This document shows positions 9,541-61,612 of a stretch of 64,000 bases of DNA, one piece after another. Within the stretch, counting starts at the first letter, position 1. Each line of letters starts with the position of its first letter. Origin of the DNA: a virus; the IMG/VR virus record IMGVR_UViG_3300044844_000854, positions 32,001 to 96,000 of that record. One strand, given 5' to 3'. A program made the position numbers and the translations under genes. The notes beneath the pieces were generated by a model. That model ran no database searches, was not told the DNA's origin, and saw only the letters and a program-made list of their open reading frames with translations.

Positions 9541-9842
9541 GATATGATACTTCTAGAATTAACTATACGAATTATGATCTTGATGATAGTAGTAAGAACA
9601 CTATTGATGTAGTAATACCTACTAGATATACTAATCCCTTTTTTAACTATTCCGTTTTTTCTATGGGATTATACACTACTCAATTTAGCGATACTTACCA
9701 ATCTATTGCACAGAAACTTTACAATAATCAATTGTCTTGGCATACCATTGCAGATTTAAATCCTGAGTATGATGCACTTGAATATTGTGATGGATTACCT
9801 GATAACATTACAATTAAGGTGATCATTACAGAAAGCAAATAA
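9537..9842 (+). CDS. LysM-like / tail X baseplate protein
   Basis: DTYQSIAQKLYNNQLSWHTIADLNP matches the LysM-like baseplate motif. Confidence 0.8.
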   Translation: MRYDTSRINYTNYDLDDSSKNTIDVVIPTRYTNPFFNYSVFSMGLYTTQFSDTYQSIAQKLYNNQLSWHTIADLNPEYDALEYCDGLPDNITIKVIITESK

Positions 9843-9867
9843 CATAGAAAAAAACGGACATTAAAAA

Positions 9868-11496
9868 ATGGGAACAATAAAAAAAACACAAAAACTACCT
9901 AACCTACCAATAGATGCTAAATCAATCTACTCTATCGACTTAATGACAGAGTATATTCCATATTTCTTAGTATATGTAAAACATACAGAAGATACAGAAT
10001 ATAGACCTATTGGTGATAAATTAATGGCAAGACTCACTGATTTAGAAATACAACTTACAGATAGGAAATCACCTCTTATAGAGATCACAATTGCACTTGA
10101 GAGTATGTTTATTTCTAGCAATGTCTTTGCTTATGACTCACAAGCACTTATAGGAACTTATTATAACTTAGACAATGCACCCAAATCAAATAAAGCTTTA
10201 CCTATTACAGATGATTTACTAAGAGATGAATTTGTTAGCTCTATTGATGGTATCACTAAATTCTTTGATTTAGGTAAAAAGGTAAAACTTGATTATGGAT
10301 ACAATGGATTTTACTCTACAATAGAGAACTATGATATTACTGACTTTAAACTACAGTTAAAGAATGGTGGTGTTGTTGCTACAATCATTGCTCAAAAATT
10401 GGGAAGAAGAAAAGACATCATATATCCTGCAATCGTATATACTAAAGGCACTGTTATAGATATTCTTAGAGATTTGGTATATCGCACAGGTATTGAACTT
10501 GATCCAAATATTATAGAAGATACACAAAAAGAACTTAAAGCATTAGAAAGTCAAATCTATGACGAAGAATTATCTTTAGATTTTCTTATCCAACAAGAAA
10601 GTGAACTTTACACTCAATACATAAATGAACTAGCTAAATCACCTATTAGTAGTAGCGATATTGAGGCTCAAATACCTACATCAAATGTAGATGATATAAA
10701 TGGTAGAGATATAGTTAAGGTAGATGCAACTGTATTTATCTTACTTTCCGATAAATTCTTAGAGATTATCCAATTAAGAAAAGATATTCTCACACAAAGA
10801 GAAACAATTGCAGAGATTAAAGCTACTGCTAAAAACACATCTGCATTCTCAGATACATTTAAACTTTATGAATATACAAGTGATGAACCATTTGTTGTAG
10901 AAAGTGCAACAATAAGAAAAACACTTTTGGATTTACTTAAAACACTAAACATTACACTAGAAGGCTCTCAGGATAAACTATCACTAACAAGAGAGAATGA
11001 CTATAAACTATCTTATGGTAAGCCTAATAGTGAAATTAAATCCATCACATTTAAAACAGAAGATTTACAAGAAAAAGCTAGATATTCAGGCAAACCTATA
11101 ATTACTAGAAATACTGTAAATCAAGGTACTGAAAAGATAAATTTAAATACATCTACAAGCCCAGCAGGTACTCAAAAGATAGATTTAAATCCATTGCCTA
11201 CTATCTCACAAAGAGGTGCTACTGCAAAAACAAGAAGTTCATATGAACAAGCTAAGATCAATCGTAATGCAAGAAATGTTTTGACTGCAAGTGTTGAAAT
11301 GCTTACAGGTTATCCTGCATTTTACCCTTTAGATAAAATTGAACTTGATTTAGGTAATTCATTTTACTCAGGTGTTTATGTTATAGATCATGTGATACAT
11401 GAATTTTCTGATAGTGGATTTAAGACAAAAATGGAATTAAACAAAGAAGCATCTAAAAAACTTAAACCTAAAGCTAAAGAAGGCACTCTTAGATAA
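9868..11496 (+). CDS. Baseplate hub protein (gp27 / P2 gpD-like)
   Basis: KVKLDYGY; C-terminal G.P....D.IEL.LG..YSG.YVI..V.H.F...GFKT; located before the spike gene. Confidence 0.75.
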   Translation: MGTIKKTQKLPNLPIDAKSIYSIDLMTEYIPYFLVYVKHTEDTEYRPIGDKLMARLTDLEIQLTDRKSPLIEITIALESMFISSNVFAYDSQALIGTYYNLDNAPKSNKALPITDDLLRDEFVSSIDGITKFFDLGKKVKLDYGYNGFYSTIENYDITDFKLQLKNGGVVATIIAQKLGRRKDIIYPAIVYTKGTVIDILRDLVYRTGIELDPNIIEDTQKELKALESQIYDEELSLDFLIQQESELYTQYINELAKSPISSSDIEAQIPTSNVDDINGRDIVKVDATVFILLSDKFLEIIQLRKDILTQRETIAEIKATAKNTSAFSDTFKLYEYTSDEPFVVESATIRKTLLDLLKTLNITLEGSQDKLSLTRENDYKLSYGKPNSEIKSITFKTEDLQEKARYSGKPIITRNTVNQGTEKINLNTSTSPAGTQKIDLNPLPTISQRGATAKTRSSYEQAKINRNARNVLTASVEMLTGYPAFYPLDKIELDLGNSFYSGVYVIDHVIHEFSDSGFKTKMELNKEASKKLKPKAKEGTLR

Positions 11497-11505
11497 GGAA
11501 TAGTC

Positions 11506-12921
11506 ATGGCAAGATTTACTAAAGGTTTAATGACCTACAAACAAGAAGAATATGAAACAAAACAATATGGTATATTTGCAGGTGTTGTTAAAGATACAAA
11601 TGATCCCCTTAAATTTGGTAGAGTAAAGGTATTTTGCCCATCTATCTATGCAGATCAACTTTCGCCCTGGTGTACACCATGCTTTCCAGGTGGTATGGGT
11701 ATGGAAAGTGGATTTGTAATTATACCAAGATTAGAAACTTATGTATGGGTAACATTTGAGGCAGGTGATGTATCTGCACCAATTTACTTAGGTGGATTTG
11801 CAGTAGAAACCCCTATAGGTAGAAATAGTGATAATTCAATTGTAGAGAATGATATTAAACACCAAGCAAATTCATCACCATTACCTACACATTCACAAGC
11901 AATCCCACAGGGTAGTGATGTATCTAGTATTCATACAACAGGTGCTACATTGCCACCTTCATTCAATTCTAGCTATGGTAGTAATATTGTATTTAAAACA
12001 CCTAGTGGCAACATGATTGAATTAGATGATACAGATGGTTATGAACGAATATCACTAAAGCATAATACAGATAGCTTAATGGAAATTAGAAATGATGGCA
12101 CAATCAATACTGTATCTACAGGTAACCAATACCAATATGTCGCAGGTGTGCTTAATCAAAAGATAGAAAAAGATAAAATTGTAGACACCAATATGTCTTT
12201 ATTTGAAACTGTTAATGGTAATGTTGTTAAGAATTACTTATCTAATTATTCACTAAATATAGGTGAAGATTTTTCACTTTCCGTTTTTTCAGGTGATGAG
12301 AATAAGGTTTGTAACTCACTTACTCATACTGTAAATGGTAGCTCTATCACATCTACATTAGGTGATCTTGAATTTTCTTCAGGCGGTAGCTTTAATCTTG
12401 CAGGTGCAAATAGCTTAAATCTATTCTCTATTGCAAATACTACAATCTTCTCTAGCAATTCACTAGATATTACAGGTTTAACTAAATCCATATCCATAAA
12501 GGGTAGCAATGGTGTTGCTGAATTAAATGCAAGTGATAGAACTAATCTTATATCCTATGGTGTAGAATGTATTGCTAATCCACAAACACTTACACAACAG
12601 GTATTTTTAGGTAATACTACTTTACCAAGTGCATCTCGTGTAGGTCCTACTACAATCCCTTTACTTAAAGAAGGTGTTGTTATGGGGACACAATTACAGA
12701 TTATGCTTACTGCTGTTATTCAAGCTATCTCTACCTATGCTAAACTACTATCTGCAGGTGGGAATGCACCAGGTCTTGGATTACCTGATCCCACACTAGC
12801 AGCAGCAAATATTGCACTTACTGTAGCACTAGATACAATTACTGCATTATACTTGACACCTATACCACCAAGTGGTAATCCTTTATTTGCTAGTGATAGT
12901 GTATTTGTATCTAAGAAATAA
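11506..12921 (+). CDS. Baseplate central spike (gp5/VgrG/gpV OB-fold)
   Basis: GVVKDTNDPLKFGRVKV, P....VWVTFEAGD...PIYLG, KTPSGNMIELDDT.G.ERI. Confidence 0.9.
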   Translation: MARFTKGLMTYKQEEYETKQYGIFAGVVKDTNDPLKFGRVKVFCPSIYADQLSPWCTPCFPGGMGMESGFVIIPRLETYVWVTFEAGDVSAPIYLGGFAVETPIGRNSDNSIVENDIKHQANSSPLPTHSQAIPQGSDVSSIHTTGATLPPSFNSSYGSNIVFKTPSGNMIELDDTDGYERISLKHNTDSLMEIRNDGTINTVSTGNQYQYVAGVLNQKIEKDKIVDTNMSLFETVNGNVVKNYLSNYSLNIGEDFSLSVFSGDENKVCNSLTHTVNGSSITSTLGDLEFSSGGSFNLAGANSLNLFSIANTTIFSSNSLDITGLTKSISIKGSNGVAELNASDRTNLISYGVECIANPQTLTQQVFLGNTTLPSASRVGPTTIPLLKEGVVMGTQLQIMLTAVIQAISTYAKLLSAGGNAPGLGLPDPTLAAANIALTVALDTITALYLTPIPPSGNPLFASDSVFVSKK

Positions 12922-12960
12922 CAATAACAATAACAATGATAAAAAACGGAATAGTAAAAA

Positions 12961-13155
12961 ATGACTAAACAAGAACTAATCGACTTACTAAACCAAGCAG
13001 ATAAAGATGCAATTGGATTTGATGTAGGTGCAGAAGGCGATAAGAAGATCAATGATAAAAACACTGCTTTAGCTGAAAACCTAATCAAATTTATGACAGA
13101 AAGCCTTGTGATAGATGTAGGTGGTATTACTTATCCTATAAAGGTGATACAATAA
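12961..13155 (+). CDS. Hypothetical small baseplate-region protein
   Basis: 64-aa ORF with a motif/RBS 11 nt upstream; follows the spike. Confidence 0.55.
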   Translation: MTKQELIDLLNQADKDAIGFDVGAEGDKKINDKNTALAENLIKFMTESLVIDVGGITYPIKVIQ

Positions 13156-13619
13156 TGAATGAGAAATTCCCCTTTACTGAATATATGGATAACCCTTTAG
13201 AATATATAAACAATTTACCTAGAAACCAATCAAATGCACTACAAGATCAAATCAAAACACTTGTAGATGAAATTGAAACTAAAAACAAACCATTTTGGGA
13301 AGAACAAGGCATTACAGAAGAGCAAGCATTACAACCAATTCTTGAAAGAACACTTGCAATGACTGAAATGATTAAAGGCACTGATAAAGGTAAGGAACTG
13401 CTAAAAAACGGAGATGTAAAAAAACAATTAAATCAAACACTCTTAGATATGAAAAATATGATAAATCTAGTAGGATATATTCAAAAGTCTAATGAAATAT
13501 CAAACCTAAAGCAAACTATGACAGGTCTTGCTAATGAGGTTGAAAGGAGTAAACATGAAATCCTACAAAGATTACCAATCCAACCAAACACCAATAGAAA
13601 AATCGGAACTACAAAATAG
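13155..13619 (+). CDS. Hypothetical helical protein
   Basis: 154-aa ORF coupled to the previous one (TAATG overlap). Confidence 0.55.
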   Translation: MNEKFPFTEYMDNPLEYINNLPRNQSNALQDQIKTLVDEIETKNKPFWEEQGITEEQALQPILERTLAMTEMIKGTDKGKELLKNGDVKKQLNQTLLDMKNMINLVGYIQKSNEISNLKQTMTGLANEVERSKHEILQRLPIQPNTNRKIGTTK

Positions 13620-15045
13620 TGTAAAAACGGAACAGATCAAAAAAGCCTTAGAAAACTCTTCTATTATTACAGGCACACCATCTGTAAACTACACAAAGGA
13701 ACAACCTTTAGGACAACAGGTATCTAATACATTATCCGACTATGCTAAAAACCAAATAGGGAAACAAATAGCAGATGGATTTACTAGTGATGTATATAAA
13801 GATAGTGCATTTAATCAAAGCTATAATGGTGTAGAAGATTTTGCCAACAATTTTGGTAATAAACTAGGAATGTCTTGGCAAAAAACCTCACCATTTGACT
13901 TCTTAGGACTTACGGATAATTTACAAGATGCAATCGACCCTGTTAAAGGTGGTATTGACACTATTAAGGGTATTATTGATCTTGTTGTAGCCGTTATTGA
14001 TTTTGTAGCTAATCTCTTAATACTTACTGCAAATCTAGTGCAAGCTATTTTGACTGCATTCATTAAACTACTAGAAGCAGTTAGAGATTTACTTGTGAAT
14101 ACTAATATGTTTGTCTTAAATGCAAGTGAAAAAGCACTTACAGATAGAAGTGTTTATAATCAACTAATGGAAAAGGCTGTTCCTAGCTTAAAAACAAATC
14201 AAGATATTATACCTGATTTACTTACAAGCAGATACTTTACACCTAGCGAAACCATAAGAAGAATTTCCCTTAGCTATGATGATGAATTTGATAAAAATAG
14301 ACCTATAGGTGTTACAGGTGGTGATATTCATTTGGTTGTTATGCCATATCTTTTAGCACCAAATATAGGTAACATTATCCAACTCTATACACAATTCTTA
14401 GCATTACTAGATAAAAAAGCATTTAAAGATATACTTGATAGAATAAATAATATGGCAAATCCCGATTATGTAAATAAATTAAAGGATAGACAATATCCCT
14501 ACTACCTTTATAAAGATGGTCAAGGTCAATCACCTAATTGGACTAAAAAAGGATTAAGTGACATTACAGGTGTAGATGCTATTGTTAATTCACTAAACAA
14601 ATTGATTGCTACACTAAAGGTTGCAAATAGTGCCGTAGAATTATTTAAACAAGCAGTACGACTATTCCAACAAAGAGTAAAACAAATTCAAGCAATTATA
14701 GATCGTATTCTTACTGCTATACAAGATTTAATTCAATTGACTACAATCCCTATAGGTGCTCTTACTATGTTTGGTACAGGTAGCATAGATACTGTTCAAC
14801 AAGCATTCTTAGACTCACTAAATCACCCTACATCACCACTACAAGAAAAAGATGATGAAGGAAATTTACTAATACAATCTCAAGCAAATGTATCTATGTT
14901 AGCTTATGTGATACACTTACAATTGGGTACAGGTAGTGCAATTGAATTTCTTAAAGCTCTATTCTCTGTTAGAGATGCAGCAGTTAATGTATATTCAGGT
15001 GCTACAAATACTTCAAACATTCAAGTTAGCTACGATAATATATAA
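13555..15045 (+). CDS. Hypothetical baseplate-region protein with long amphipathic helices
   Basis: Start moved from 13528 to ATG 13555, which has a strong RBS (GAAAGGAG); two long I/L/V-periodic helical segments. Confidence 0.6.
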   Translation: MKSYKDYQSNQTPIEKSELQNSVKTEQIKKALENSSIITGTPSVNYTKEQPLGQQVSNTLSDYAKNQIGKQIADGFTSDVYKDSAFNQSYNGVEDFANNFGNKLGMSWQKTSPFDFLGLTDNLQDAIDPVKGGIDTIKGIIDLVVAVIDFVANLLILTANLVQAILTAFIKLLEAVRDLLVNTNMFVLNASEKALTDRSVYNQLMEKAVPSLKTNQDIIPDLLTSRYFTPSETIRRISLSYDDEFDKNRPIGVTGGDIHLVVMPYLLAPNIGNIIQLYTQFLALLDKKAFKDILDRINNMANPDYVNKLKDRQYPYYLYKDGQGQSPNWTKKGLSDITGVDAIVNSLNKLIATLKVANSAVELFKQAVRLFQQRVKQIQAIIDRILTAIQDLIQLTTIPIGALTMFGTGSIDTVQQAFLDSLNHPTSPLQEKDDEGNLLIQSQANVSMLAYVIHLQLGTGSAIEFLKALFSVRDAAVNVYSGATNTSNIQVSYDNI

Positions 15046-15437: not shown

Positions 15438-15486
15438 TAAATATATGATGTATAGTGAAAAAACGGAAAATAACAAAGGATAAAAC

Positions 15487-17385
15487 ATGAGAACACTAAA
15501 GACAAAATCACTAGGTAACTTACCAATACAACTAGAGCCTACATCTAAAGAATTTCTATCCATTAGACAATCTATGCTAGATACGATTGATCAAATTGCA
15601 CCTGAATGGACGGATAGATATGCAGGTGATTTAGGTATTGTGCTTGTAGAACTTATGGCATATATGGGGGATATTCTTTCATATAACATAGATAAAGCAC
15701 AAAATGAAAGCTACCTTGCTACTGCTCAAGAACGAAAAAATATCATCAAACTTTTAGAACTAATTGGCTATAATTTAAAATCAGGTAGTCCTGCACAAGT
15801 ACCTATGGCAATCATTACTACTCAAGACCTTGTTACTATCCCTAAAGGTACTATTGTAGAGAGTAATGTAGGTGGTTATAGGTTTGAGTCACTTGAAAAC
15901 ATTGTGCTACAGGAGGCTGGTGTATATTGCCAAGCTGAATATGCAAGCCAATTATCACTTGCTTTAGGTGTAGAAGTAAATGCAATTAACAATGCTATTT
16001 TCTCTAGTGGTATTACTAAAACTGCATTACTTGGTAAATCAAATGGAAAAGCTAATCAAACTTTTATCCTTAGCGATATTGGTATTGTTATTGGTAGTAA
16101 TAGCGACTTATCATTACAAATCAATGGTGCTACATGGACTGCACAAGAGTCATTTCTTGACACCGAGTCGGATAGTTTGGTTTATACTTATCGACTAAAT
16201 GATGATGATACGGTTACAATTACATTTGGTAATGATTTAAATGGGGCAATTCCTGCAATTAACCAAAATATCAACATTACTTATCGTGCAGGTGTTGGGC
16301 AAAAATACAATGCAATTGGTATAGGTGCAATTAGCAATCTAAAGAGTTCAATTCAAGGCATTGCTACAATTTACAATGTTGCACAACCAAGTGGTGGTAG
16401 TGATAGTGAGTCAAATGATAGTGCTAAAAGAAATGGACCATTATCACTTAAAGCACTTGATAGGGCAATCACACTACAAGACTTTGAAACATTAGCAATT
16501 AAAACACCAAATGCAGGTATCAAATCTGCTAGAGCTGTTGCAGGTGAAGGTGCTTATGATGTAGAAGTATATGTTGCTTGTGAAGGACAAAATCCAATCC
16601 CTAGTGGTAGGTGGTATCGTGATTTCAACACAGGCACAGGTATAGTAGGTATGGTAGGTAGGTATCTTTTTGATCGTAAGCCTATCCCTACACGATTACT
16701 TGTAGCACCTTGTAGAGCGGTACAAATTAAACTAAATGCTAAGATTGGTGCATTATCTAACTACTTAAATGCAGAAGTAAAACTAAATGTGCTAAACTCT
16801 ATTAGAACTGAATTGCTTAGATTATCTGATAGCTTTGGTAGATCATTGCCATTATCAAGGGTAATTCAAATCATTGAAAATAGTAGAGGTGTGGATTATT
16901 GTGATATTATTACACTACATAGGAAACCTGTGCTTGTATTTAAGAATGGTAGCAATCAAAATGCAATTGATTTAGCTACACTTGATTTTGACTATGCATC
17001 TATCAGTGAAACTACTGTAGAAGATACTTATTATATAGAGTGGCAATCTACATTATCCTTTTTTATCAAGTCCGAAAAAAACGGGTATATCAAAAATGAT
17101 AATACTAAGCTATTTGTAATGAATACACAGAGTAAAACATTCACAATATACACTTTACCTATAGTAGATACAGAAGATACACCTGAGAGATATAAGCAAT
17201 TTACATTTACTCTTACTTTAGGTAATTCACTACCTACACAAGATGATATTTGGGAATTAAAGGTATCTCGAAAGATTGATACAATTACACTATCACCTAA
17301 TGAGATCATTGTGCCTAGATTACTTGGTAACAATCTCTTACTTGATGAGAATGATATTAAAATCAATGTTGTTGGAGGTAAATGA
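15487..17385 (+). CDS. Baseplate J / gp6-like wedge protein
   Basis: PEWTD...DLGIVLVELMAYMGDILSYNID..QNESYLATA, FGN...GAIP, GGSD.ES, RAITLQDFE. Confidence 0.92.
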   Translation: MRTLKTKSLGNLPIQLEPTSKEFLSIRQSMLDTIDQIAPEWTDRYAGDLGIVLVELMAYMGDILSYNIDKAQNESYLATAQERKNIIKLLELIGYNLKSGSPAQVPMAIITTQDLVTIPKGTIVESNVGGYRFESLENIVLQEAGVYCQAEYASQLSLALGVEVNAINNAIFSSGITKTALLGKSNGKANQTFILSDIGIVIGSNSDLSLQINGATWTAQESFLDTESDSLVYTYRLNDDDTVTITFGNDLNGAIPAINQNINITYRAGVGQKYNAIGIGAISNLKSSIQGIATIYNVAQPSGGSDSESNDSAKRNGPLSLKALDRAITLQDFETLAIKTPNAGIKSARAVAGEGAYDVEVYVACEGQNPIPSGRWYRDFNTGTGIVGMVGRYLFDRKPIPTRLLVAPCRAVQIKLNAKIGALSNYLNAEVKLNVLNSIRTELLRLSDSFGRSLPLSRVIQIIENSRGVDYCDIITLHRKPVLVFKNGSNQNAIDLATLDFDYASISETTVEDTYYIEWQSTLSFFIKSEKNGYIKNDNTKLFVMNTQSKTFTIYTLPIVDTEDTPERYKQFTFTLTLGNSLPTQDDIWELKVSRKIDTITLSPNEIIVPRLLGNNLLLDENDIKINVVGGK

Positions 17386-18917
17386 TGAGAAAAATCTTAC
17401 AAGGTTGGCAATTCTCTAAGGTAAGAACTACTGAAATTGCAGATATTGTAGAAATAGGCAATCAAATCCCCCTACTAATCGAAGAAACTAATCTTCCTTT
17501 AGGTACAACTATTCATAGGGTAGTAGTAAGACAATCAATCATAAATGTAGGTGGTCAAATATCTTATGTACTTTCTAAAGCAATTGAAGATAGTCCACAA
17601 ATCACTACTGATTGTTTAATTGTTAAGGTTGGTATCCCTTTAGATACAGCTCAATTCACATTTACAGGTGATATTGCTATCCTATCTTCTGAAATTGAAT
17701 ACCCTAGAGCATATGATTTAAATAGATATAAGCTAGAATTTGAAGGATATGTAAATTCATACTCTACATATCGAGATGAATATATCACACAAATCATTTT
17801 ACCTAGCACAAGTGGTATTGTTAAATATATAACACTACTTTATAAGGTAAATTTGGTAGGTGTACAAAGTGATCCATTCTATATCTACTCTCAAGTAAAT
17901 TGCCTTAATAGTGGTGTTGCAAATAAACTCTACAATCCTTTAGAAAGTAAATTAGGTTTAAAGCTATTCAATCGCTTACCTGCATACCTTAAAAAAGAAG
18001 ATGAAAAAAACGGAAATGCAACAAAAAAACTACTTAATATATTAGGTAGAACACTTGATGATGTAGAAACTAAAGTAAATCAAATCAAAAATACATATGA
18101 TGTAGATAATGTAAATGCAGATAAAATACCATACATAGATAATCTTTTAGGTTGGGAAACAAATTTTGAACTAAATGAACAGATTAGAAGATTTGAAACA
18201 AAAACTGCTATAGATGTATATAAGACTAAATCAACAACTAGAAGTATTGAACTTATCCTACAAGAGATACTTGGTTGGAATGTAGAAATTCAAGAGGGCT
18301 ACCCTTATGTCTTTAGCTTAAATCAAAAACCTTATGAATTACTAGCTAAGCCTGATGATTGGAATGATACTACAGATGGTGATTGGGATCAATTGTTAGC
18401 AAACTCACCTTTATCTGTTACATATAATACAGATATGGGTATTGTTGATATAGGCTCTACATTCTCACCTATTGCAATCTTACCATCATTTTCAGATAAA
18501 AAAGATAACACAAGCAACAATTTTCAAAATCTAAATGGTGTACTTATTAAGCTATACCCACTACCTAATCGTAGGGTAAAATTAGGAAGAGATTTACTAG
18601 ATAAGCTAAATGTATTACTACCACAACTATTGGTACATTATGCAGACTATTTTATCTCTGTTCAAGATGTATTTGATGAAACTATTAGACTTGGTATTGC
18701 TGATGACTATGATGATTTCTTAGGTTATGTCAATGGTGAAACACTTGGGCTCAAATCTAAGAGTGGTACAAAAACACCATCACTTGTATTGTTTGAAACT
18801 TGGGGTGAAGATCGTGATTATGATAGCTTACTAAATGATGATTTTTATAGGCTATTCCATAATGCTATGGGTATTGCAGGTAGCAATGTGGACGGTGGTT
18901 ATACACCAAACGAATAA
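17382..18917 (+). CDS. Baseplate/tail protein I-like (P2 gpI domain) with N-terminal extension
   Basis: LFNRLPAYL..ED, IPYIDNLLGW, AIDVYKTK; follows baseplate J. Confidence 0.7.
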   Translation: MMRKILQGWQFSKVRTTEIADIVEIGNQIPLLIEETNLPLGTTIHRVVVRQSIINVGGQISYVLSKAIEDSPQITTDCLIVKVGIPLDTAQFTFTGDIAILSSEIEYPRAYDLNRYKLEFEGYVNSYSTYRDEYITQIILPSTSGIVKYITLLYKVNLVGVQSDPFYIYSQVNCLNSGVANKLYNPLESKLGLKLFNRLPAYLKKEDEKNGNATKKLLNILGRTLDDVETKVNQIKNTYDVDNVNADKIPYIDNLLGWETNFELNEQIRRFETKTAIDVYKTKSTTRSIELILQEILGWNVEIQEGYPYVFSLNQKPYELLAKPDDWNDTTDGDWDQLLANSPLSVTYNTDMGIVDIGSTFSPIAILPSFSDKKDNTSNNFQNLNGVLIKLYPLPNRRVKLGRDLLDKLNVLLPQLLVHYADYFISVQDVFDETIRLGIADDYDDFLGYVNGETLGLKSKSGTKTPSLVLFETWGEDRDYDSLLNDDFYRLFHNAMGIAGSNVDGGYTPNE

Positions 18918-19029
18918 CATTAAAATAGAATGATGAAAAAAAACGGAACATAAAAAAAAGATTATGCTATACACTACACCTTAGATATTATATAAAGAGA
19001 TACAAAGACATACACTAAAGGAATACAAT

Positions 19030-19584
19030 ATGAACAAAATTGCCTTAACAATTGTGGGTAAATACCAAGACACCTTGATTGATAAAAACGGAAATGTAAA
19101 AAAACATGAGATCAAAAACAATCAAGTACAACTAACTGCTCTAAAGCTAATATCTTCACTATTTAAAAACCAAGCAAATACAATTGGTATTCAATACATT
19201 GCTTTAGGTAGTGGAGATGCTACTTGGGATTTACTAACAAATAACAAACCTAGCCCAATGCTTAATAGCAACACTACACTTACAACAGAGATATTTAGAA
19301 AAGCTATCCCTATTACAGATATTGTATTTGTAGACCCTACGGCTGCTTTTGGTCAAGGTGCAATTTCTCAAACTGCCACTACAAGATTAAGAATTACTAC
19401 TCAAATTGAAGCTAGTGAAGCTAATGATTCTCTTAGAGAATTTGCTCTTTTTGGTGGTACTGCAACAGGTATGCAAAATAGTGGATTTATGATCAATTGG
19501 GTAGCACACCCCTTGATTGAAAAGACAGAAGATGTTGTTCTTAATCGTATGATTGAACTAGACTTTGTTCTAGTAAATAACTAA
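19030..19584 (+). CDS. Putative tail-fibre attachment / collar-like protein
   Basis: YIALGSGD, TTLTTEIFRK, EANDSLREFALFGG, F.INW..HP.IEKT: common myophage fibre-attachment domain pattern. Confidence 0.65.
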   Translation: MNKIALTIVGKYQDTLIDKNGNVKKHEIKNNQVQLTALKLISSLFKNQANTIGIQYIALGSGDATWDLLTNNKPSPMLNSNTTLTTEIFRKAIPITDIVFVDPTAAFGQGAISQTATTRLRITTQIEASEANDSLREFALFGGTATGMQNSGFMINWVAHPLIEKTEDVVLNRMIELDFVLVNN

Positions 19585-19634
19585 ACTAAACACACACTCT
19601 TAGAAAAAAACGGAAATTACAAAAAGGAAATAAT

Positions 19635-25733: not shown

Positions 25734-25822
25734 TAAATAAGCTAAAATAAGAATATTGATTGAATTTCTTTTAGATAAGGTATAATATCTCTGTATCACA
25801 TTAAAAAACGGAGATAGAAAAA

Positions 25823-26197
25823 ATGGCAGCAATTCCTTACGATAGTCCATATAAGGCTACAACTAAAGAAATTACATGGGATACAACAAATCCATTAAAC
25901 TTAACAACAGATGCAAAATTAGATGGCACAAGAGCATTTAGATTAGCCGTATCATCTTTGCCTGCAGGAGCAACAATCTCTTTACAAGGTGCATTGATTG
26001 AAACACCATCTTTAGATGCACATTGGTCAACCATTTCTAGCTTGACTTCAAGTGGATTTATTACTGATTTTGATAATCACTATAAGATTATGCCACATAA
26101 GGTTAGATTAAAACAAACTGCAGGTGCTACTACATCAAATGCTACTAAAGTGCTTGTTGTATCTAAGCATATTCCACCTGAATTAACTAAGCCTTAA
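25823..26197 (+). CDS. Hypothetical beta-rich virion protein
   Basis: 124 aa; motif/RBS upstream; in the structural region. Confidence 0.5.
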   Translation: MAAIPYDSPYKATTKEITWDTTNPLNLTTDAKLDGTRAFRLAVSSLPAGATISLQGALIETPSLDAHWSTISSLTSSGFITDFDNHYKIMPHKVRLKQTAGATTSNATKVLVVSKHIPPELTKP

Positions 26198-26227
26198 TAG
26201 ATAGCATAAAAAAACGGAGATTACAAA

Positions 26228-26824: not shown

Positions 26825-26848
26825 GCATAAAAAACGGAGAATAACAAA

Positions 26849-27217
26849 ATGACTATGACTACAATATTAGAACAATTACTACCTATTATGGGTACTGTTG
26901 TAAGTGCAATTGTTTCTTATGTACTCACTCTTCTAGCTAAGAGATACCAACTACAATTAAGCAATGAACAAGAAACTCAATTAAGACTTACTGTTCGTTC
27001 TGCTATTGCAGGTGCTGAAGAATGGGGTGCAAGAAAAATGAATGTTGAAAAACTTGATTATGTTAGTGGTAAGGAAAAGGCAGATTATGCTTTAGCTATC
27101 ATTAAGAGTTTATACCCAAAAGCAGAACAAGAAGATATGTTAAAGCTGATTGACTGTGAAATTGCTACTATGCAAGACTTGGGTGCAACTAAAAGAAAAA
27201 TCGACATTGAAATCTAA
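26849..27217 (+). CDS. Putative holin (LL-H-like)
   Basis: One N-terminal TM helix, then V.SAI.GAEE and GKEK.DYA, the LL-H holin signature. Confidence 0.7.
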   Translation: MTMTTILEQLLPIMGTVVSAIVSYVLTLLAKRYQLQLSNEQETQLRLTVRSAIAGAEEWGARKMNVEKLDYVSGKEKADYALAIIKSLYPKAEQEDMLKLIDCEIATMQDLGATKRKIDIEI

Positions 27218-27359: not shown

Positions 27360-27361
27360 AA

Positions 27362-28041: not shown

Positions 28042-28074
28042 AAGACAAACCCTTAAAAAAACGGAGCTTATAAA

Positions 28075-45102: not shown

Positions 45103-45151
45103 TATTATATCAAAAACCAACCACCACCGAAAAAACGGAGGATTACAAAAG

Positions 45152-47144: not shown

Positions 47145-48455
47145 ATGAATACAACAGGCATGATATGTATGGCAAAAAACGGAATGTTAAAAAAAGATTT
47201 AGATAAGATCAAAAAAGACTTAACATTCATAGACTATACAGATGAACAATTTCCACAATATAAGCTATATATAGATACAAGTGATTTTATTTATATACCT
47301 AGAGGATATGATGATTTTAAATACTACCAAGTAGAAAGCATAGACATACCAAACACTATGCAAGAAAAAACGGAATTTAAAATCACCCTTAGAGAATATC
47401 AAAATAAAGCAGTAGATACACTATATGAAAATGTAATAGCTAAAGGTGGTGCAACTCTTATAGGTGGTTGTGGTACAGGTAAAACAATTATGGGAATTGC
47501 AACTGCTATGAGAATAAAACATAAAACTTGTATCTTAGTGCATAAAGAGTTTTTGATTGAACAATGGATTGAACGAATAGAGATGTCATGCTCAAATTGT
47601 AAGATAGGAATATGGCAACAAGATAAAATACCTGATGATGATTGTGATTTTGTAATAGCAATGGTGCAATCTCTATATGCTAGAACATATCCAAGTGAAG
47701 TATATGATAGATTTGATTTGGTAATTACAGATGAAGTCCATAGGTTTTCTGCACCTACATGGCAAAACATTATTAGTAATTTTAAAGCTAGGTATAGAAT
47801 AGGACTTACTGCCACACCCAATAGAAGAGATGGATTACAAGAAATATTTTACAATCATATAGGGAAATCTGTATATGAAATTCAAGGCACACTATTACAA
47901 CCAACAATCTTTAGGTATGAAACTAAGATAGGGATAGCAATCAATAAATACACTGATTTTAAAGGTGGATTAAACAATGCTAAACTACTTACAATCCTAG
48001 CAGAAAATAAAGATAGAAATACACAAATAGCAACACTACTTACCAATGCAAAAAAACGGAATAGGAAAATACTATTATTATCAGATAGAATAACAATGCT
48101 AGATAACTTACTAGATATACTTACAGGTGGTATAGGTGAAACAGAAGATGTAAGGAAATATGTAGGTGGATTATCTAGTAATGAGCGAGAACAAGCAAGT
48201 AAAGCTAAAATCATACTTGCCACTTATGGTATGGCACAGGAAGGACTTGATATTCCTGATATTGATACACTATTTCTAGCTACACCTAAAGCAGATGTTG
48301 TGCAAGCAGTAGGTAGAATATTAAGACCACACCCTGATAAACTTGAGCCTATTGTTATGGATTTTGTAGATCATACACCACTAACCTATGCTTTATACAA
48401 GAAGAGGAAAACAATGTATGAAACTAGCAACTATCTTATAAGAGATTATAAATGA
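47145..48455 (+). CDS. Superfamily 2 DNA helicase (UvsW/XPB-like)
   Basis: LREYQ, GCGTGKT, DEVH, LTAT, EGLDIP, QAVGRILR. Confidence 0.92.
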   Translation: MNTTGMICMAKNGMLKKDLDKIKKDLTFIDYTDEQFPQYKLYIDTSDFIYIPRGYDDFKYYQVESIDIPNTMQEKTEFKITLREYQNKAVDTLYENVIAKGGATLIGGCGTGKTIMGIATAMRIKHKTCILVHKEFLIEQWIERIEMSCSNCKIGIWQQDKIPDDDCDFVIAMVQSLYARTYPSEVYDRFDLVITDEVHRFSAPTWQNIISNFKARYRIGLTATPNRRDGLQEIFYNHIGKSVYEIQGTLLQPTIFRYETKIGIAINKYTDFKGGLNNAKLLTILAENKDRNTQIATLLTNAKKRNRKILLLSDRITMLDNLLDILTGGIGETEDVRKYVGGLSSNEREQASKAKIILATYGMAQEGLDIPDIDTLFLATPKADVVQAVGRILRPHPDKLEPIVMDFVDHTPLTYALYKKRKTMYETSNYLIRDYK

Positions 48456-49075: not shown

Positions 49076-49140
49076 GTGTTCTGCATAGGTTTTTCTTCTA
49101 CCAAGCACTACAATCACTTAAAAAAACGGAGTATTACAAA

Positions 49141-49839
49141 ATGGTAGTAGAAAAACCAATCCAACCAATCCAGCCACAAACAGTTAAAAATCCTGTGTTC
49201 TTTGAAGATGATGCACCTATTACTTCTATAGAAAAAGATAGCATTAAGAAGAAACAAAATTCTGCTTATTTTAGATCCTACTATTTGAAGAATAAAGAGA
49301 AAATCCTACAAAGAAGAAAACACAGGTACTTAAACGACCCTGATTATAGAGAAATCATTCAAAGGTCTAAAGAGTTTGCTAAACTAAGAAACCTTGAAGT
49401 ATCAAATAATCTAGAGTCTACTACTATTTCCCCTGTTGCTACAGGTAATCCACTTGCAAATAGAGCTAAGAAACTCAAAATCAAATCACCTACTTTAGGT
49501 GAGGCTGTTGTCAAATTCTTAACGATTGGGCAACTTGCAGAGGCTATTGGCATTGCTGTGGCTACTTGTAGAAAATGGGAACGAATGAATATTTTACCCC
49601 CTAGCAATTATCGAAATGAAGGTGGTCATAGATTATACTCTATTGATCAAGCACAACTTGCTACTGATATTTATCATAAGCACCTAAATAAATTTGCAGA
49701 TAAATGTGAAAAATGGCGATTGACAGAAGATTTTCAAAAAGAACTCTTTGACTCTTGGCAATCTTTACATATGGGGGTAAATCCAAATCGCTTTAAGCAC
49801 ACTGATCTATCTAAGCTAAACGATGCTTTAGATGAATAA
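49141..49839 (+). CDS. DNA-binding protein with MerR-like HTH
   Basis: TIGQLAEAIGIAVATCRKWERMNILP...R.EGGHRLYS; basic N-terminal helix. Confidence 0.75.
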   Translation: MVVEKPIQPIQPQTVKNPVFFEDDAPITSIEKDSIKKKQNSAYFRSYYLKNKEKILQRRKHRYLNDPDYREIIQRSKEFAKLRNLEVSNNLESTTISPVATGNPLANRAKKLKIKSPTLGEAVVKFLTIGQLAEAIGIAVATCRKWERMNILPPSNYRNEGGHRLYSIDQAQLATDIYHKHLNKFADKCEKWRLTEDFQKELFDSWQSLHMGVNPNRFKHTDLSKLNDALDE

Positions 49840-51830: not shown

Positions 51831-51891
51831 CTGATTGTTCATGTCTAAATACATGATATAAAAAAACGGAATAGCTAAAAAAGGATTTAAA

Positions 51892-52857: not shown

Positions 52858-53562
52858 ATGATTACGGTAGCTATTCCTGTATTTAATACTAAGCCTGCAT
52901 ATTTACTTGAGGCTATTCAATCAATCATATCACAAACATATACAGAATTTGAGTTAATGATACTTAATGATGGCTCTACATATCGAGATACACTTGCATT
53001 TTTAACTATTGTTGAAACACTTGATCCTAGAATTAGGTATATCAACTTTAAACAAAATCAAGGTATTGCAAAAATAGGTAATGCAATCTTCTCTTTAGCT
53101 AAATATGATTTAATTGCAAGATTAGATAGTGATGATATTGCACTACCTACAAGACTTGAAAAACAAGTTAAATACATGAATGAAAATCCAAATGTAGATA
53201 TACTTGGAACAGGATTACACTTTTACCAATATGATGAAAAAAACGGTTGGTATAAAGGACAATCCCAAATATTCTACCCACAAATAGACAAACAGATTGC
53301 AACTAATTCTATGTGGTTTATCCACCAACCTTGTTGTATGTTTAGAAAAAGTAAAGACTTATACTATGATGAAACTATAGAATACTTTGCAGAAGATTTT
53401 GATCTATTTATTCGTGCAATTAAACAAGGTAAGATACTACACAATTTAGATGATTACTTAAACCTATATCGCATACATAGTAATAGTTTATCTGCTCATC
53501 ACTTTTCAAATCCTAAGCATTATGATAGAATGTTATTACTTAGAAAAACACTGTTAGGATAA
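52858..53562 (+). CDS. Glycosyltransferase family 2 (GT-A)
   Basis: ITVAIPVFN, SI.SQTY, NDGS, ARLDSDD, EDFDL, YRIH. Confidence 0.9.
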   Translation: MITVAIPVFNTKPAYLLEAIQSIISQTYTEFELMILNDGSTYRDTLAFLTIVETLDPRIRYINFKQNQGIAKIGNAIFSLAKYDLIARLDSDDIALPTRLEKQVKYMNENPNVDILGTGLHFYQYDEKNGWYKGQSQIFYPQIDKQIATNSMWFIHQPCCMFRKSKDLYYDETIEYFAEDFDLFIRAIKQGKILHNLDDYLNLYRIHSNSLSAHHFSNPKHYDRMLLLRKTLLG

Positions 53563-54577: not shown

Positions 54578-55681
54578 ATGTGTTTATATGCAAACAGCAT
54601 TGACACAGAAAAGACAGACAAAGATATGAAAAACATACTTAAAGAACTTTACAATCCTGAGAACTATACAAAATCAGCAGTAGCTAAAGAAGATGCACAA
54701 CAAAAAACGGAAGTTAAAAAAGAAGAAGAACAACCAAAATACAAAAAAGGAACATTCTTCTCTAACATTGACCTAAGTAATAAAGAAGTAAAACAATCTA
54801 AAGCATACACTGAATATCCTGTAAAATCTTTAGGGATTATATCTGTAATAGATAAGCATATTGAACAGAAAAAGAATGAGCCACGATTTGGATTTCACCC
54901 ATCTTCAATTTCTTTAGAAGATCCATTTTGTGCAAGGTATCATGCATTCCGTCATACAAGAGATGCACTATTCCAAACAGGTATCTTTGAAACCATTGAA
55001 GAAGCAAATCAAGCATTATCCATTCGTGGTAGATCAATAGATGTAGCATTACAAAGAGTATTTGATACAGGTCATGCACTACACTCTATGTATCAAAATG
55101 ATTATCTTTCTAGCATTCTTTGGGGTAAATGGGAAAGATATAATAAGGAAACAAAACTTGCAGAAGAACACATTGGTCATAAACCCGAAGGCAGGGGATG
55201 GGAATATATTGAGCCTACAATCAAAAATTCTGAATATGAAATTACAGGTCATACAGATGGTATTCTTAGAATAAATGATGAATGGTATCTACTAGAGATT
55301 AAAAGTGCAAATGATGCAAGTTGGTCATTTATGCATTCACCTAGAGATGCACACCAAAAACAAGCACAGTTATATTTACACTCTACATTGATTGGGTTTG
55401 AAGAGATAGAGCCAAAAGGTGTTGTATTTTTGTATGTAAATAAGAATACATCTAAGGAAAAGGAATTTCTTGTATTAAAAGATAGCACAATGATACAACC
55501 AATCTTTGACGGCTTAAAGCTATTCTATGATTGCCTAGATAAACAAGAACTACCATCTAAGGTATGTTTAAGAAAGAAATGCCCTAGAGCAAATGATTGT
55601 CCTGCTCAAGAACTATGCTTTATGCTAGATGCAGGTATTGTAGGTGCAAAACAATTACAAAACATGATTTCCAACAGGTAA
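54578..55681 (+). CDS. Cas4-like PD-(D/E)XK exonuclease
   Basis: HPS...C.R, G.ALH, GHTDG, LEIKS, Q.QLY, C-terminal Cys cluster; probable start 54626. Confidence 0.8.
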   Translation: MCLYANSIDTEKTDKDMKNILKELYNPENYTKSAVAKEDAQQKTEVKKEEEQPKYKKGTFFSNIDLSNKEVKQSKAYTEYPVKSLGIISVIDKHIEQKKNEPRFGFHPSSISLEDPFCARYHAFRHTRDALFQTGIFETIEEANQALSIRGRSIDVALQRVFDTGHALHSMYQNDYLSSILWGKWERYNKETKLAEEHIGHKPEGRGWEYIEPTIKNSEYEITGHTDGILRINDEWYLLEIKSANDASWSFMHSPRDAHQKQAQLYLHSTLIGFEEIEPKGVVFLYVNKNTSKEKEFLVLKDSTMIQPIFDGLKLFYDCLDKQELPSKVCLRKKCPRANDCPAQELCFMLDAGIVGAKQLQNMISNR

Positions 55682-56236: not shown

Positions 56237-56272
56237 ACCAACCATAACACAAGAAAAACGGAACAAACAAAA

Positions 56273-56560
56273 ATGGAAGAAAAACAAATTATCAACTTAA
56301 AGGTTAGTGGTAAATCTGATCCATCTAAAGTAGCAGGTGCTATTGTAAAATATATGCATGAAGGTAATGAAGTAGAAATCACTACTATTGGTGCAAGTGC
56401 AATCAATCAAGCAGTAAAAGCTCTAGCAATTGCAAGGGGAATGGTAGGAACAAGTGGCTATGATTTATCATTTATTGTAGGTTTTGCAGAAGAAACAATT
56501 GATGATGAATTAAGAACAGCAATTAAATTCTTCCCTATCAAGACTAAATTTGGTAAATAA
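56273..56560 (+). CDS. spoVS: SpoVS family (Alba-like) protein
   Basis: LKVS.KS.P..VAGAI, IGA.A.NQAVKA.AIARG, F....ID..RTAIK: near-canonical SpoVS. Confidence 0.93.
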   Translation: MEEKQIINLKVSGKSDPSKVAGAIVKYMHEGNEVEITTIGASAINQAVKALAIARGMVGTSGYDLSFIVGFAEETIDDELRTAIKFFPIKTKFGK

Positions 56561-56603
56561 TAACTACTCACTACTCACTCACTAAAAAAACGGACATTTA
56601 AAA

Positions 56604-56663
56604 ATGGCTAAAACACAAATGCCTACTAAAGATAAAGGCACAACCAAACCAAAGAAATGCTAA
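56604..56663 (+). CDS. Possible 19-aa basic peptide
   Basis: MAKTQMPTKDKGTTKPKKC; ATG lies 10 nt after a motif CGG, the same spacing as at genuine gene starts. Confidence 0.35.
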   Translation: MAKTQMPTKDKGTTKPKKC

Positions 56664-56717
56664 ACACTAATCTATACACTCTTTAGATATAGATAAGAAA
56701 AAACGGAAGATACAAAA

Positions 56718-57422
56718 ATGACAAAAGAAAAAACATATAAAATTGTAGAGATGTATGAAACAATACAAGGTGAAGGCTTTTGGTCAGGTCACTCTATATT
56801 CATCATTAGATTTAAAGGTTGTAATGTATGGACAGGTAAAGAAAGTGATCGACATAAAGCTAAAGCAATGTGTGGATTATGGTGTGATACAAACTTTGTA
56901 GATACCAAAAAGGAAAAGAAAGGTGGTACATATACCCTAGATGAATTAGAAGAATATGTACTAACCAATGTATCACCTGAAAGAACACCTATCATTCTAC
57001 TTACAGGTGGTGAACCAATGTTACAGGTAGATGCTGAATTGATTACTTCATTTATTGATATGGATTTTAGAGTACATATTGAAACCAATGGAAGTCAGTC
57101 AGTAGAAGAAGTTCTAAAGGTAATCAATGAAAATCCACCATTTATGATTAGTACGGTATGGGTAACAGTATCACCTAAGCCACCATTACCATTACATAAG
57201 AGTTTATTTGATTTACCACCATTTGCATTAGAGTTAAAGTGTGTGTTTGATAAACAGATGGATTTACATGCTTATGATGATTTAGAATGTTATGCTAGAT
57301 ATATCCAACCTGTTGAAATTGATGGTAAGACTAATCTACAACAGTGTATTGATTTTGTTATGAATAATGGCAATAGATTTGCACTTACAACACAAGCCCA
57401 TAAAGTTTGGAAAATTGAATAA
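56718..57422 (+). CDS. queE: 7-carboxy-7-deazaguanine synthase (radical SAM)
   Basis: E.YETIQGEG..SG, IRF.GCN, CDT, LTGGEP, IETNG, VTVSPK, QP, Q.HK. Confidence 0.93.
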   Translation: MTKEKTYKIVEMYETIQGEGFWSGHSIFIIRFKGCNVWTGKESDRHKAKAMCGLWCDTNFVDTKKEKKGGTYTLDELEEYVLTNVSPERTPIILLTGGEPMLQVDAELITSFIDMDFRVHIETNGSQSVEEVLKVINENPPFMISTVWVTVSPKPPLPLHKSLFDLPPFALELKCVFDKQMDLHAYDDLECYARYIQPVEIDGKTNLQQCIDFVMNNGNRFALTTQAHKVWKIE

Positions 57423-60013: not shown

Positions 60014-60101
60014 GATCATACTAAACTAGACTAAAAAAAACGGAATTTAAAAAAAAGGCAATAGGTAAAAAAATACGAACATATTTATATATGTTTAGAT
60101 A

Positions 60102-61090: not shown

Positions 61091-61119
61091 TTGACAGATT
61101 ATATTTGTTTATATATAGT
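61091..61119 (+). promoter_or_regulatory. sigma70-like promoter
   Basis: TTGACA-17-TATAGT. Confidence 0.65.
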
Positions 61120-61156
61120 ATGACTACTTGCATAATACAACATAGGAGTAGTCATA

Positions 61157-61459
61157 ATGCAAATCACTACATTAAATTTAAAAGGTTGCTTGATTGATCA
61201 ATTATTGGTAGATGAAGAAAAACCAAGACACAAGCTAATGAAAACATACTCATATAAAAATAAATGGTTTGTGGAAATCTATGAGGCATTTAATTCACGA
61301 ACTAATTCAAGAACAAGAGTATTTGCAAATCTTTTAGCACCTGATGATGCTTTTAGAACAATCCCTACACTTGCAACTAAGCATAGAATTTTTACATCTA
61401 TGTATGAACATAAGAATATAGATGAATTGGAATACCAAGATTTAGTTAAAGGTATGTAA
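61157..61459 (+). CDS. Hypothetical protein
   Basis: 100 aa; RBS AGGAG. Confidence 0.55.
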   Translation: MQITTLNLKGCLIDQLLVDEEKPRHKLMKTYSYKNKWFVEIYEAFNSRTNSRTRVFANLLAPDDAFRTIPTLATKHRIFTSMYEHKNIDELEYQDLVKGM

Positions 61460-61524
61460 GATAATCTATCAAACTTAAACATAACAACAACAAAAAAACG
61501 GGAATTTAAAAAATACCTTAGATA

Positions 61525-61553
61525 TATACTAACAACACTTAGATCGTTATACT
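61525..61553 (+). promoter_or_regulatory. Promoter (CACTTAG variant) for the helicase loader gene
   Basis: TAGATA-TATACT-17-TATACT with CACTTAG at 61536-61542. Confidence 0.55.
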
Positions 61554-61612
61554 CTATACCATATCAATCATTGATATATTTTTTCTATTCCGTTTTTCTC
61601 AAGGAAACACAG

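Follow-up and report, generated by a model that had tools for sequence, protein, structure and literature searches.

An oriented 21-bp motif overlaid on gene boundaries, ribosome sites and codons in a freshwater myovirus genome

Why does one short word recur throughout a viral genome, written inside genes in all three reading frames and occasionally reversed, and is it kept there for the peptide, for the ribosome, or for something else that reads nucleic acid? The question is raised by a window of 64,000 bp (bases 32,001-96,000) of a single viral contig of 104,574 bp (IMG/VR record IMGVR_UViG_3300044844_000854, GC content 32%), in which the motif AAAAACGG was found 52 times (49 copies on the plus and 3 on the minus strand), compared with 0.69 expected from shuffles. 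An initial annotation, made from the letters of the window, had proposed that selection acts on the nucleotide sequence of this motif and not on the peptide or only on the ribosome-binding site (RBS), and had favoured a site for the binding of double-stranded DNA. The motif proved to be maintained by selection on nucleotides, i.e., as a DNA word and not for the protein it encodes. Judged by its sequence and placement, it is most likely a transcription signal, forming an array that is real yet not unprecedented as phage punctuation. Positions refer to the window unless given as genome positions.

Sequence, orientation and placement of the motif

The whole contig, which is complete according to CheckV, holds 90 copies of AAAAACGG (83 plus, 7 minus; strand ratio 12:1), and the plus-strand copies are co-oriented with all genes. 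The genome is almost wholly one-directional (long open reading frames, ORFs, sum to 80.7 kb on the plus vs. 2.7 kb on the minus strand) and its genes are closely packed, with 87% of the sequence coding and 13% non-coding. On the plus strand, AAAAACGGA occurs 68 times and each of its single-base variants at most 10 times. Alignment of the plus-strand copies gave a full element of about 21 bp, A6-CGG-AA-n-w-T-w-A5-6, which is a single block of about 23 bits with no conservation in the 20 bp upstream; its logo lacks dyad symmetry and the site is therefore asymmetric. A position-weight scan of the genome, with the threshold set at 0.2 matches per strand under a Markov model, retrieved 89 plus and 7 minus copies. 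The genome is strongly CpG-depleted (observed/expected = 0.32) and 83 of its 179 plus-strand CGG trinucleotides belong to the motif, i.e., one 21-bp word supplies nearly half of the coding-strand CGG. The three CCG-A6/7-CGG forms that had been noticed initially (17072, 32163, and 45127) are present; hairpin formation by the CCG-A7-CGG forms was considered and rejected, as the stem would have only 3 bp. When viral contigs were scanned with a strict pattern, several copies were found only in fragments of the same lineage, other contigs having single matches, and the motif was absent from a contig of 57% GC with a 37% identical baseplate relative (L198). A literature search with the motif sequence returned primers only. 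In practical terms, the motif aids the calling of gene starts in this phage and might help to recognise contigs of its lineage.

The copies are spread evenly over the early, virion, and replication modules (5-12 per 10 kb). Their spacing is near-random: its coefficient of variation (CV) of 0.84 (random mean 0.98) falls inside the random 5-95% range, which also led to the rejection of a regular-spacing model. Strong strand polarity combined with an even density in every module and all frames would also suit a strand-specific site of DNA transactions apart from gene expression, such as a T5-type nick, a lagging-strand priming or helicase-loading site, or a Chi/KOPS-like guide for a translocase or exonuclease, in which case the motif would be mostly non-coding only because it is easier to fit there. 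The phage carries its own DnaB, DnaG, and DnaC-like proteins, a family A DNA polymerase, and a RecA-like protein, and the spacing is slightly more even than random. Polar words such as Chi and KOPS/SRS have 5-8 nt, lie mostly inside genes, and are unrelated to gene borders. The motif resembles Chi and KOPS in its strand skew, in its use of any reading frame within coding sequence, and in being selected at the nucleotide level, but it differs from them in having 21 bp (known primase, Chi, and KOPS words have 3-8 nt), in being about 15 times denser in non-coding DNA, and in being tied to gene borders. As the CV does not leave the random range, genes of 6.1 kb and 3.4 kb are free of copies, no nickase was recognised, and exact placement at stops and starts would not be expected, we consider a DNA-transaction site very improbable.

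About 58 of the 83 plus-strand copies (~70%) lie in the non-coding 13% of the genome, which corresponds to ~4.3 copies per kb between genes vs. ~0.27 per kb within them (~15-fold; chance ~0.01 per kb). Three placements can be distinguished: 26 copies abut a start codon at a fixed distance (CGG-10/11 nt-ATG), ~30 are non-coding without abutting a start, and ~25 are truly intragenic and distributed evenly along genes. Many copies overlap a stop codon or abut a start in the short intergenic spaces. Five are directly followed by a separate AGGA and then a start, so that ~31 of the 83 closely precede a start (the 26 abutting and these ~5 before a Shine-Dalgarno sequence and start) and ~52 do not. 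The default form of the motif is CGGAA, while CGGAG is used by 14 of the 26 abutting copies; a G at position 9, which creates GGAG, is thereby enriched in abutting copies as compared with copies elsewhere (4 of 57, P = 5e-6). Because this enrichment is confined to the abutting copies, their sequence clearly points to a second use as the Shine-Dalgarno sequence, or ribosome site, of the next gene; motif-free genes have ordinary TAAGGAG-type Shine-Dalgarno sequences at similar spacing. In gaps of at least 80 nt, the first 30% of the gap contains 17 of 23 non-abutting copies, which typically follow the upstream stop by 5-25 nt. Taken together, the strand ratio, the co-orientation with genes, the excess in non-coding DNA, the placement at stops and starts, and the GGAG pattern indicate a directional signal tied to gene boundaries. 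Copies at starts, at stops, and in gaps of the window are the following:

1063..1083, +, start-abutting, CGGAG, 11 nt to ATG 1083, occupies the whole 24-nt junction
4388..4408, +, non-coding, 39 nt upstream of ATG 4436, a start with a Shine-Dalgarno sequence of its own
5453..5473, +, start-abutting, before a gene for 1120 amino acids (aa)
8841..8861, +, stop-hugging, 5 nt past stop 8835, 76 nt to the next start
9849..9869, +, start-abutting, 25-nt junction
12941..12961, +, start-abutting
15458..15478, +, followed by a separate AGGA Shine-Dalgarno sequence and ATG 15487
18938..18958, +, stop-hugging, 18 nt past the stop, 83 nt to the start
19605..19625, +, followed by AGGA and ATG 19635 (2032-aa gene)
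25803..25823, +, start-abutting, CGGAG
26209..26229, +, start-abutting, CGGAG, 30-nt junction
26829..26849, +, start-abutting, CGGAG, before a holin-like gene, 24-nt junction
27343..27363, +, start-abutting
28056..28076, +, start-abutting, CGGAG
31108..31128, +, overlaps the stop codon of gene 30816-31109
32167..32187, +, start-abutting, CCG-A7-CGG form
32948..32968, +, within the final codons of gene 32574-32972, 15 nt ahead of the overlapping start 32972
34068..34088, +, start-abutting, overlaps the 3' end of gene 32972-34084
34995..35015, +, start-abutting, overlaps the end of the upstream ORF
37481..37501, +, non-coding, 34 nt ahead of the ribonucleotide reductase start
39514..39534, +, stop-hugging after the ribonucleotide reductase gene, faces the convergent minus-strand ORF 39623-39901
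41190..41210, +, stop-hugging, 5 nt past the stop, early-type promoter 47 nt later
42375..42395, +, start-abutting, 27 nt past the strong intrinsic terminator 42318-42349
45130..45150, +, start-abutting (GTG), before the family A DNA polymerase gene, CCG-A6-CGG form, with a sigma-70-like promoter upstream
49121..49141, +, start-abutting, before the gene of a 232-aa protein with a MerR-type helix-turn-helix (HTH)
51861..51881, +, followed by AGGA and ATG 51892 (ParB-like), with a TTGACA-17-TATGAT promoter upstream; start-abutting in the related contig L085
55680..55700, +, overlaps the stop codon of gene 54578-55681
56253..56273, +, start-abutting, before the SpoVS/Alba-like gene
56585..56605, +, abuts the ATG of a very short ORF in gap 56560-56718
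56698..56718, +, start-abutting, before a radical-SAM gene
60035..60055, +, stop-hugging, early-type promoter 79 nt downstream
61493..61513, +, non-coding, two early-type promoters 23 and 44 nt later
62254..62274, +, overlaps the upstream stop, followed by AGG and ATG 62284

Selection on the nucleotide sequence

The intragenic copies can separate a constraint on the peptide from one on the nucleotides. All copies listed in the initial annotation were correct with respect to the position of the C, the frame, and the encoded peptide, i.e., K-N-G at 13409, 18011, 19089, 35519, and 58648, K-T-E or K-T-D at 13628, 33585, 38395, 43717, 47371, and 54708, and K-K-R-N at 48057. To these we add 17082 and 47180 (K-N-G) as well as half-motifs at 38014 (K-T-V) and 53244 (K-N-G-W). 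The reversed copies are also real, three being exact and the fourth a weaker A4 copy. Intragenic and reversed copies are listed here with the start of each element:

9640..9660, -, reversed copy within the plus-strand gene 9537-9842, position-weight score 23.4
12269..12289, -, reversed copy within the gp5-like gene 11506-12921, score 23.8
13403..13423, +, K-N-G, codon 84 of 154 of gene 13155-13619, 3' half at the 100th percentile of the coding background
13622..13642, +, K-T-E, codon 23 of gene 13555-15045, 4 nt past the stop of the overlapping gene 13155-13619
17076..17096, +, K-N-G, codon 531 of the baseplate-J gene 15487-17385, CCG-A7-CGG form
18005..18025, +, K-N-G, codon 209 of gene 17382-18917
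19083..19103, +, K-N-G, codon 19 of gene 19030-19584
26765..26785 (approximate), -, weaker reversed copy (A4-CGG) within gene 26228-26824, score 13.9
33579..33599, +, K-T-E, codon 203 of gene 32972-34084
35513..35533, +, K-N-G, codon 167 of gene 35016-35792, unchanged in the relative L004
38008..38028, +, half-motif (8-mer only, poor 3' half), K-T-V, ribonucleotide reductase gene
38389..38409, +, K-T-D, codon 289 of the class II ribonucleotide reductase gene 37524-39491
43711..43731, +, K-T-E shortly before the end of the ThyX ORF; an in-frame ATG (43731) follows at the standard 11-nt distance and lies 42 codons ahead of the stop
47174..47194, +, K-N-G, codon 11 of the SF2 helicase gene 47145-48455, conserved in the relatives L004, L084, and L085
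47365..47385, +, K-T-E, codon 74 of the SF2 helicase gene
48051..48071, +, K-K-R-N (uses CGG), codon 303 of the SF2 helicase gene
53238..53258, +, half-motif, K-N-G-W, glycosyltransferase gene 52858-53562
54702..54722, +, K-T-E, codon 42 of gene 54578-55681 (Cas4-like exonuclease), unchanged in L085
58642..58662, +, K-N-G, codon 29 of gene 58559-59593
61578..61598, -, reversed copy in gap 61459-61613, faces the plus-strand copy at 61493

That ACG and CGG look rare elsewhere was borne out: outside motif copies ACG accounts for 32 of ~2,040 Thr codons (16 more lie inside copies) and CGG for 6 of ~1,175 Arg codons (2 more inside). Codon choice after lysine deviates strongly from the background, with ACG making up 20 of 132 Thr codons (15%) after AAA vs. 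28 of 1,921 (1.5%) elsewhere (odds ratio 12, P = 1e-12), and AAA-AAC-GGN outnumbering AAA-AAT-GGN by 14:1 where the ratio of AAC-GGN to AAT-GGN elsewhere is 14:103 (P = 2e-10). Nor is the bias limited to the A-tract and CGG, as the 3' half of the element is kept too: scored with a matrix trained on non-intragenic copies only, 21 of 26 intragenic copies exceeded the 95th percentile of the coding background (Mann-Whitney P = 4e-16).

Comparison with relatives, whose DNA covers part of the genome and includes four intragenic copies at a useful divergence, gave the same picture. In L085, a metagenome contig 84% identical to window positions 45,187-57,946, these four copies show no difference at 80 positions (12 expected, P = 2e-6), and none of their 27 third codon positions is changed (7.2 expected, P = 2e-4), so that retention at synonymous positions, on which the initial annotation had made its proposal depend, was found in a relative. 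A piece of another viral contig (L112, 86% identical) has kept all eight early-region copies (0 of 155 positions different, 24.6 expected), and the intragenic copies of a 95-96% relative have one difference at 180 positions (7.2 expected). The peptide itself appears to matter less. For instance, the K-N-G at 17077 is retained in 91% and 79% relatives and is KFG in a 73% relative, and among distant homologues of the baseplate-J family only the G is conserved, while K and N are not. Some turnover was nonetheless seen, as the copy at 54702..54722 has CGG changed to CTG in L004, and L085 has a new reversed copy. Moreover, L085 lacks the family 2 glycosyltransferase gene (window 52858-53562), and at L085:7649-7672 a new motif copy abuts the next gene, whose counterpart in the window has an ordinary Shine-Dalgarno sequence. 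Codon bias, synonymous conservation, and the unconserved K and N at 17077 together support selection on the nucleotide sequence, and neither on the peptide nor on the RBS alone. The motif thus offers a clean natural case of overlapping codes, in which a signal is laid over Shine-Dalgarno sequences and over codons.

Of the proposal of a double-stranded DNA-binding site, the part concerning nucleotide-level selection holds, whereas the step to duplex binding has only partial support, the oriented placement at gene boundaries fitting sense RNA as well. Such a signal could be a promoter (itself a duplex site for RNA polymerase), a stoperator-like protein site, or a sense-RNA element. The last of these would be a ribosome-binding or translation-control site of the sense transcript, or the target of an RNA-binding protein or endoribonuclease at cistron borders, and it would explain the nearly exclusive sense orientation, the 26 copies in exact ribosome-site position (CGG-10/11 nt-ATG) with enriched GGAG, and the positions just after stops and just before starts, which are expected of an intercistronic processing site. 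The upstream stop often lies in or against the motif, as it does in the start-associated sequences (SAS) of Cluster K phages (PMC3203893). These SAS/ESAS elements have 13 bp, occur only in the non-structural half of the genome, and are virtually all found 3-7 bp ahead of a start codon (PMC3203893). Like them, the present motif is a one-orientation word at the ribosome-site position with a Shine-Dalgarno-like core and sometimes with the upstream stop inside it; unlike them, it closely precedes a start in only ~31 of 83 copies and occurs in all modules, after stops, and inside genes. The ~25 intragenic copies have no following start codon and are nevertheless conserved at synonymous sites, ~30 non-coding copies lie 14-577 nt from a next start that has its own Shine-Dalgarno sequence, and no gene for an S21-type ribosomal protein was found in the genome. 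In addition, five high-scoring minus-strand copies, where ~0.2 are expected, would have no role in sense RNA; being non-random, the minus-strand copies mildly favour recognition at the DNA level. An RNA-level element accordingly seems to us improbable, if less so than a DNA-transaction site. As a separate observation, the ATG at 43731 in the region 43711-43859, inside the ThyX ORF, may be an internal start or the start of a nested small protein.

Possible roles in transcription

The reading we favour, with a probability of roughly 40%, is that of a phage-specific promoter overlaid on ribosome sites and ORFs. It is preferred because of the single-block size and strict orientation of the motif, the lack of another late signal, the case in which a terminator, the motif, and an ATG follow each other, and because phage promoters commonly lie inside genes. 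Its location mainly in non-coding DNA also speaks for this reading, as do the synonymous conservation and the preserved 3' half of intragenic copies. The motif would be read on duplex DNA by the host RNA polymerase redirected by a phage factor, or by an unrecognised phage polymerase; we infer that it is read by the transcription machinery, with transcripts beginning inside it or immediately past it. In a packed, one-directional genome the signal would be written wherever room exists. In junctions of 24-35 nt it would span the distance from stop to start, with CGGA(G) serving as the Shine-Dalgarno sequence of the next gene, and we propose that the fixed CGG-10/11 nt-ATG spacing arises because the motif fills these short junctions in this double function, and that GGAG is enriched at that spacing because read-through mRNAs use the overlaid block as their ribosome site. 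In longer gaps the motif would stand just past the upstream stop, ahead of host-type early promoters, and inside genes it would be an internal promoter, coded as K-N-G, K-T-E/D, or K-K-R with otherwise avoided codons.

Single-block phage promoters of the T7 type consist of an AT-rich part, a specificity part, a TA-rich melting part, and conserved first transcribed bases. T7-type promoters have 23 bp, the T4 late promoter is TATAAATA, and single-block phage promoters also occur within coding sequence. The motif resembles T7-type and T4 late promoters in being compact, strictly oriented, present in many copies per genome, and placed in the ends and interiors of upstream genes, and it resembles the T7 type in overall span and in the order of AT-rich, specific, and TA-rich parts and a conserved start. 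It differs from both in that no cognate polymerase or sigma-like factor was found, in its unrelated sequence, and in the many copies that touch a start and leave no room for a leader.

Host-type signals are distributed differently. A promoter family CTWAGA-N4-5-TATAMT, often with TTGACA ~17 nt before the -10 box, has at least 14 intergenic plus-strand sites, which are restricted to the leftmost 7 kb and the rightmost 30 kb of the genome and probably mark early regions:

Window 41238, 43918, 44520, 57869, 58494, 60115, 61517, 61538, +, intergenic host-type promoters
Genome 175, 3368, 4295, 6332, 96154, 100663, 101886, +, intergenic host-type promoters

In the virion module of ~50 kb, no promoter of the CTWAGA family and no other over-represented word was found, and terminators are not above chance. 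Intrinsic terminators are few; three strong ones (42318-42349, 44432-44455, and 45017-45035) cluster in the replication region, and 27 nt past the first of them comes a copy of the motif, abutting the next ATG; the interval contains no host-type promoter. The motif was also considered as a -35/-10 partner of downstream TTAGAT/TATA words, a possibility that was rejected as the distances vary and TTAGAT-type words are partly due to codon bias.

Several results weigh against a promoter. The even density over early, virion, and replication modules is unlike that of a class-specific promoter, the stop-hugging placement in long gaps (17 of 23) is one that a promoter would not need, intragenic copies are not clustered toward the 3' ends of genes, and transcripts that start in one of the 26 abutting copies would be nearly leaderless. 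Moreover, no suitable reader came to light, though the phage may encode one that such scans fail to recognise: a six-frame search for sigma-70 regions 2 and 4 (PF04542, PF04545) gave no match, no RNA polymerase or sigma factor was seen when ~75 proteins were scanned with Pfam and PHROG, and a scan for the catalytic DxDxD gave one unconvincing match only. T7-type RNA polymerase (PF00940) had no six-frame match either, a weak negative given that control genomes were unmatched too. The sole gene ahead of all motif copies, gene 1, stands behind the strongest host-type promoter, and the first copies lie at its end and just after it, which speaks for a promoter. Against it, gene 1 is an orphan with three relatives in 1.8 billion clusters and no atlas, PDB sequence, or fold match.

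Some of the placements that a promoter leaves unexplained are typical of stoperators. In Cluster A mycobacteriophages (L5 gp71, Bxb1, and the TipsytheTRex repressor) these are sites of 13-14 bp, present 20-36 times per temperate genome of ~50 kb and bound by a known repressor (PMC9283540, PMC6550527). The motif would by analogy be the asymmetric site of a phage protein that binds genome-wide and, once bound, stops or insulates transcription at gene boundaries in one orientation, the overlap with RBSs and ORFs being a by-product of genome compaction. Asymmetry, dispersal, location in short junctions over stops and starts, and orientation with transcription are published traits of stoperators (PMC9283540, PMC6550527), which the motif shares down to the few opposite exceptions, and its density of ~0.8-0.9 per kb, even over modules, is of the same order as in the known arrays. 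Gaps shared with a pattern-matching host-type promoter have the motif upstream of the promoter in seven cases and downstream in one, and in long gaps it lies just past the stop; in addition, the DNA polymerase and ParB-like genes are each preceded by a looser sigma-70-like promoter that has the motif downstream. The copy at 13622 hugs the upstream stop despite lying in the next ORF. A cluster of six copies within 500 bp at genome positions 7285-7769, two of which overlap at a 15-nt offset (7688 and 7703), would also suit a binding array, as would a leaderless minus-strand ORF in a divergent promoter region and the presence of candidate binders.

Unlike stoperators, however, the motif has 21 bp, i.e., nearly twice their length, and ~90 copies, i.e., three to four times their number, in a 105-kb genome; ~30% of the copies fall within ORFs, and in a third the motif is merged with a ribosome site. 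Scans of the genome's proteins for integrase and repressor families gave no match, and no immunity repressor was recognised. Likewise, no close prophage relative was found among 185,579 species genomes (best match 37% identical), and the full replisome, ribonucleotide reductase, ThyX, and DNA hypermodification operon have a lytic look. Furthermore, if nearly all virion genes had a roadblock ahead of them, some separate mechanism of release would be required. We therefore regard a stoperator-like array as unlikely, albeit clearly less so than an RNA element.

The promoter reading and the stoperator-like one overlap in a further possibility, which we hold to be about as unlikely as the stoperator-like array, namely that the motif is recognised by a system of transcription control whose components are themselves not recognisable. 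This could take the form of a new phage factor that retargets promoters, acting on 21-bp single-block promoters fused to ribosome sites, with the orphan gene 1 or the 232-aa protein as candidates, or of an orientation-dependent, genome-wide gate of the stoperator type in a large, apparently lytic, DNA-hypermodifying freshwater myovirus. Possible nucleic-acid binders, judged by their predicted proteins, are the 232-aa protein (49141-49839), which has a basic N-terminal region and the MerR-type HTH and in which no internal duplication was detected, the SpoVS/Alba-like protein of 95 aa (56273-56560), the ParB-like protein of 320 aa (51892-52854), and the product of the 92-aa minus-strand ORF; the genes of the first three are each preceded by a motif copy. 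Whichever form applies, the motif gives a handle on the organisation of transcription in an uncultured lineage with almost no annotated regulators, and identification of its reader could uncover a new factor of promoter specificity, or else a gate of the stoperator type beyond the temperate phages of actinobacteria.

The phage genome and further observations

The phage is a myovirus whose recognisable virion genes are those for portal, tail sheath, gp5-like spike, baseplate J, and large terminase, and public sequencing runs with matching DNA are lake and other freshwater metagenomes. Beside the replication genes named above, it encodes a class II ribonucleotide reductase and ThyX and carries a queuosine-precursor gene, a 7-deazaguanine pathway, and a DNA hypermodification operon; by gene content its lifestyle looks lytic. 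Protein matches of the DNA polymerase and the sheath to phage records are all less than 35% identical, and a DNA search of phage records with the 2032-aa gene gave no match. A 2826-aa protein has no PDB sequence match, no tRNA genes were found, and a search against Rfam gave no match.

In the region of genome positions 7285-8237, the six-copy cluster is followed by a 470-nt ORF-free stretch with G+C-rich segments and a reversed copy at 8190. The ORF at 39623-39901 on the minus strand looks like the only convincing minus-strand gene; its predicted product of 92 aa has a His/Cys-rich N-terminus and two C-terminal helices (low-confidence model), and a TGnTATAAT box 4 nt before its ATG would make the predicted mRNA leaderless. 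The adjoining divergent promoter region (39902-40100) has a plus-strand promoter that resembles those of the left end of the genome.

Over-represented words in the distant helicase relatives L086, L087, L089, and L090 were set aside, as they turned out to be tandem iteron-like arrays and not dispersed motifs. In two of these contigs (L086:9165-9640 and L087:4137-4240), tandem 10-11-bp arrays (AATTAWGCAAAA, 8-10 units) lie beside SF2 helicase homologues (33-37% identity) and look like the iterons of replication origins.

The two ends of the contig (genome 1-60 and 104525-104574) repeat one another (ATATAATAAATAATCCATAATCTAAA...), which suggests a terminal repeat or a circular assembly, and the left end contains three direct ATCTAAACTTG units.

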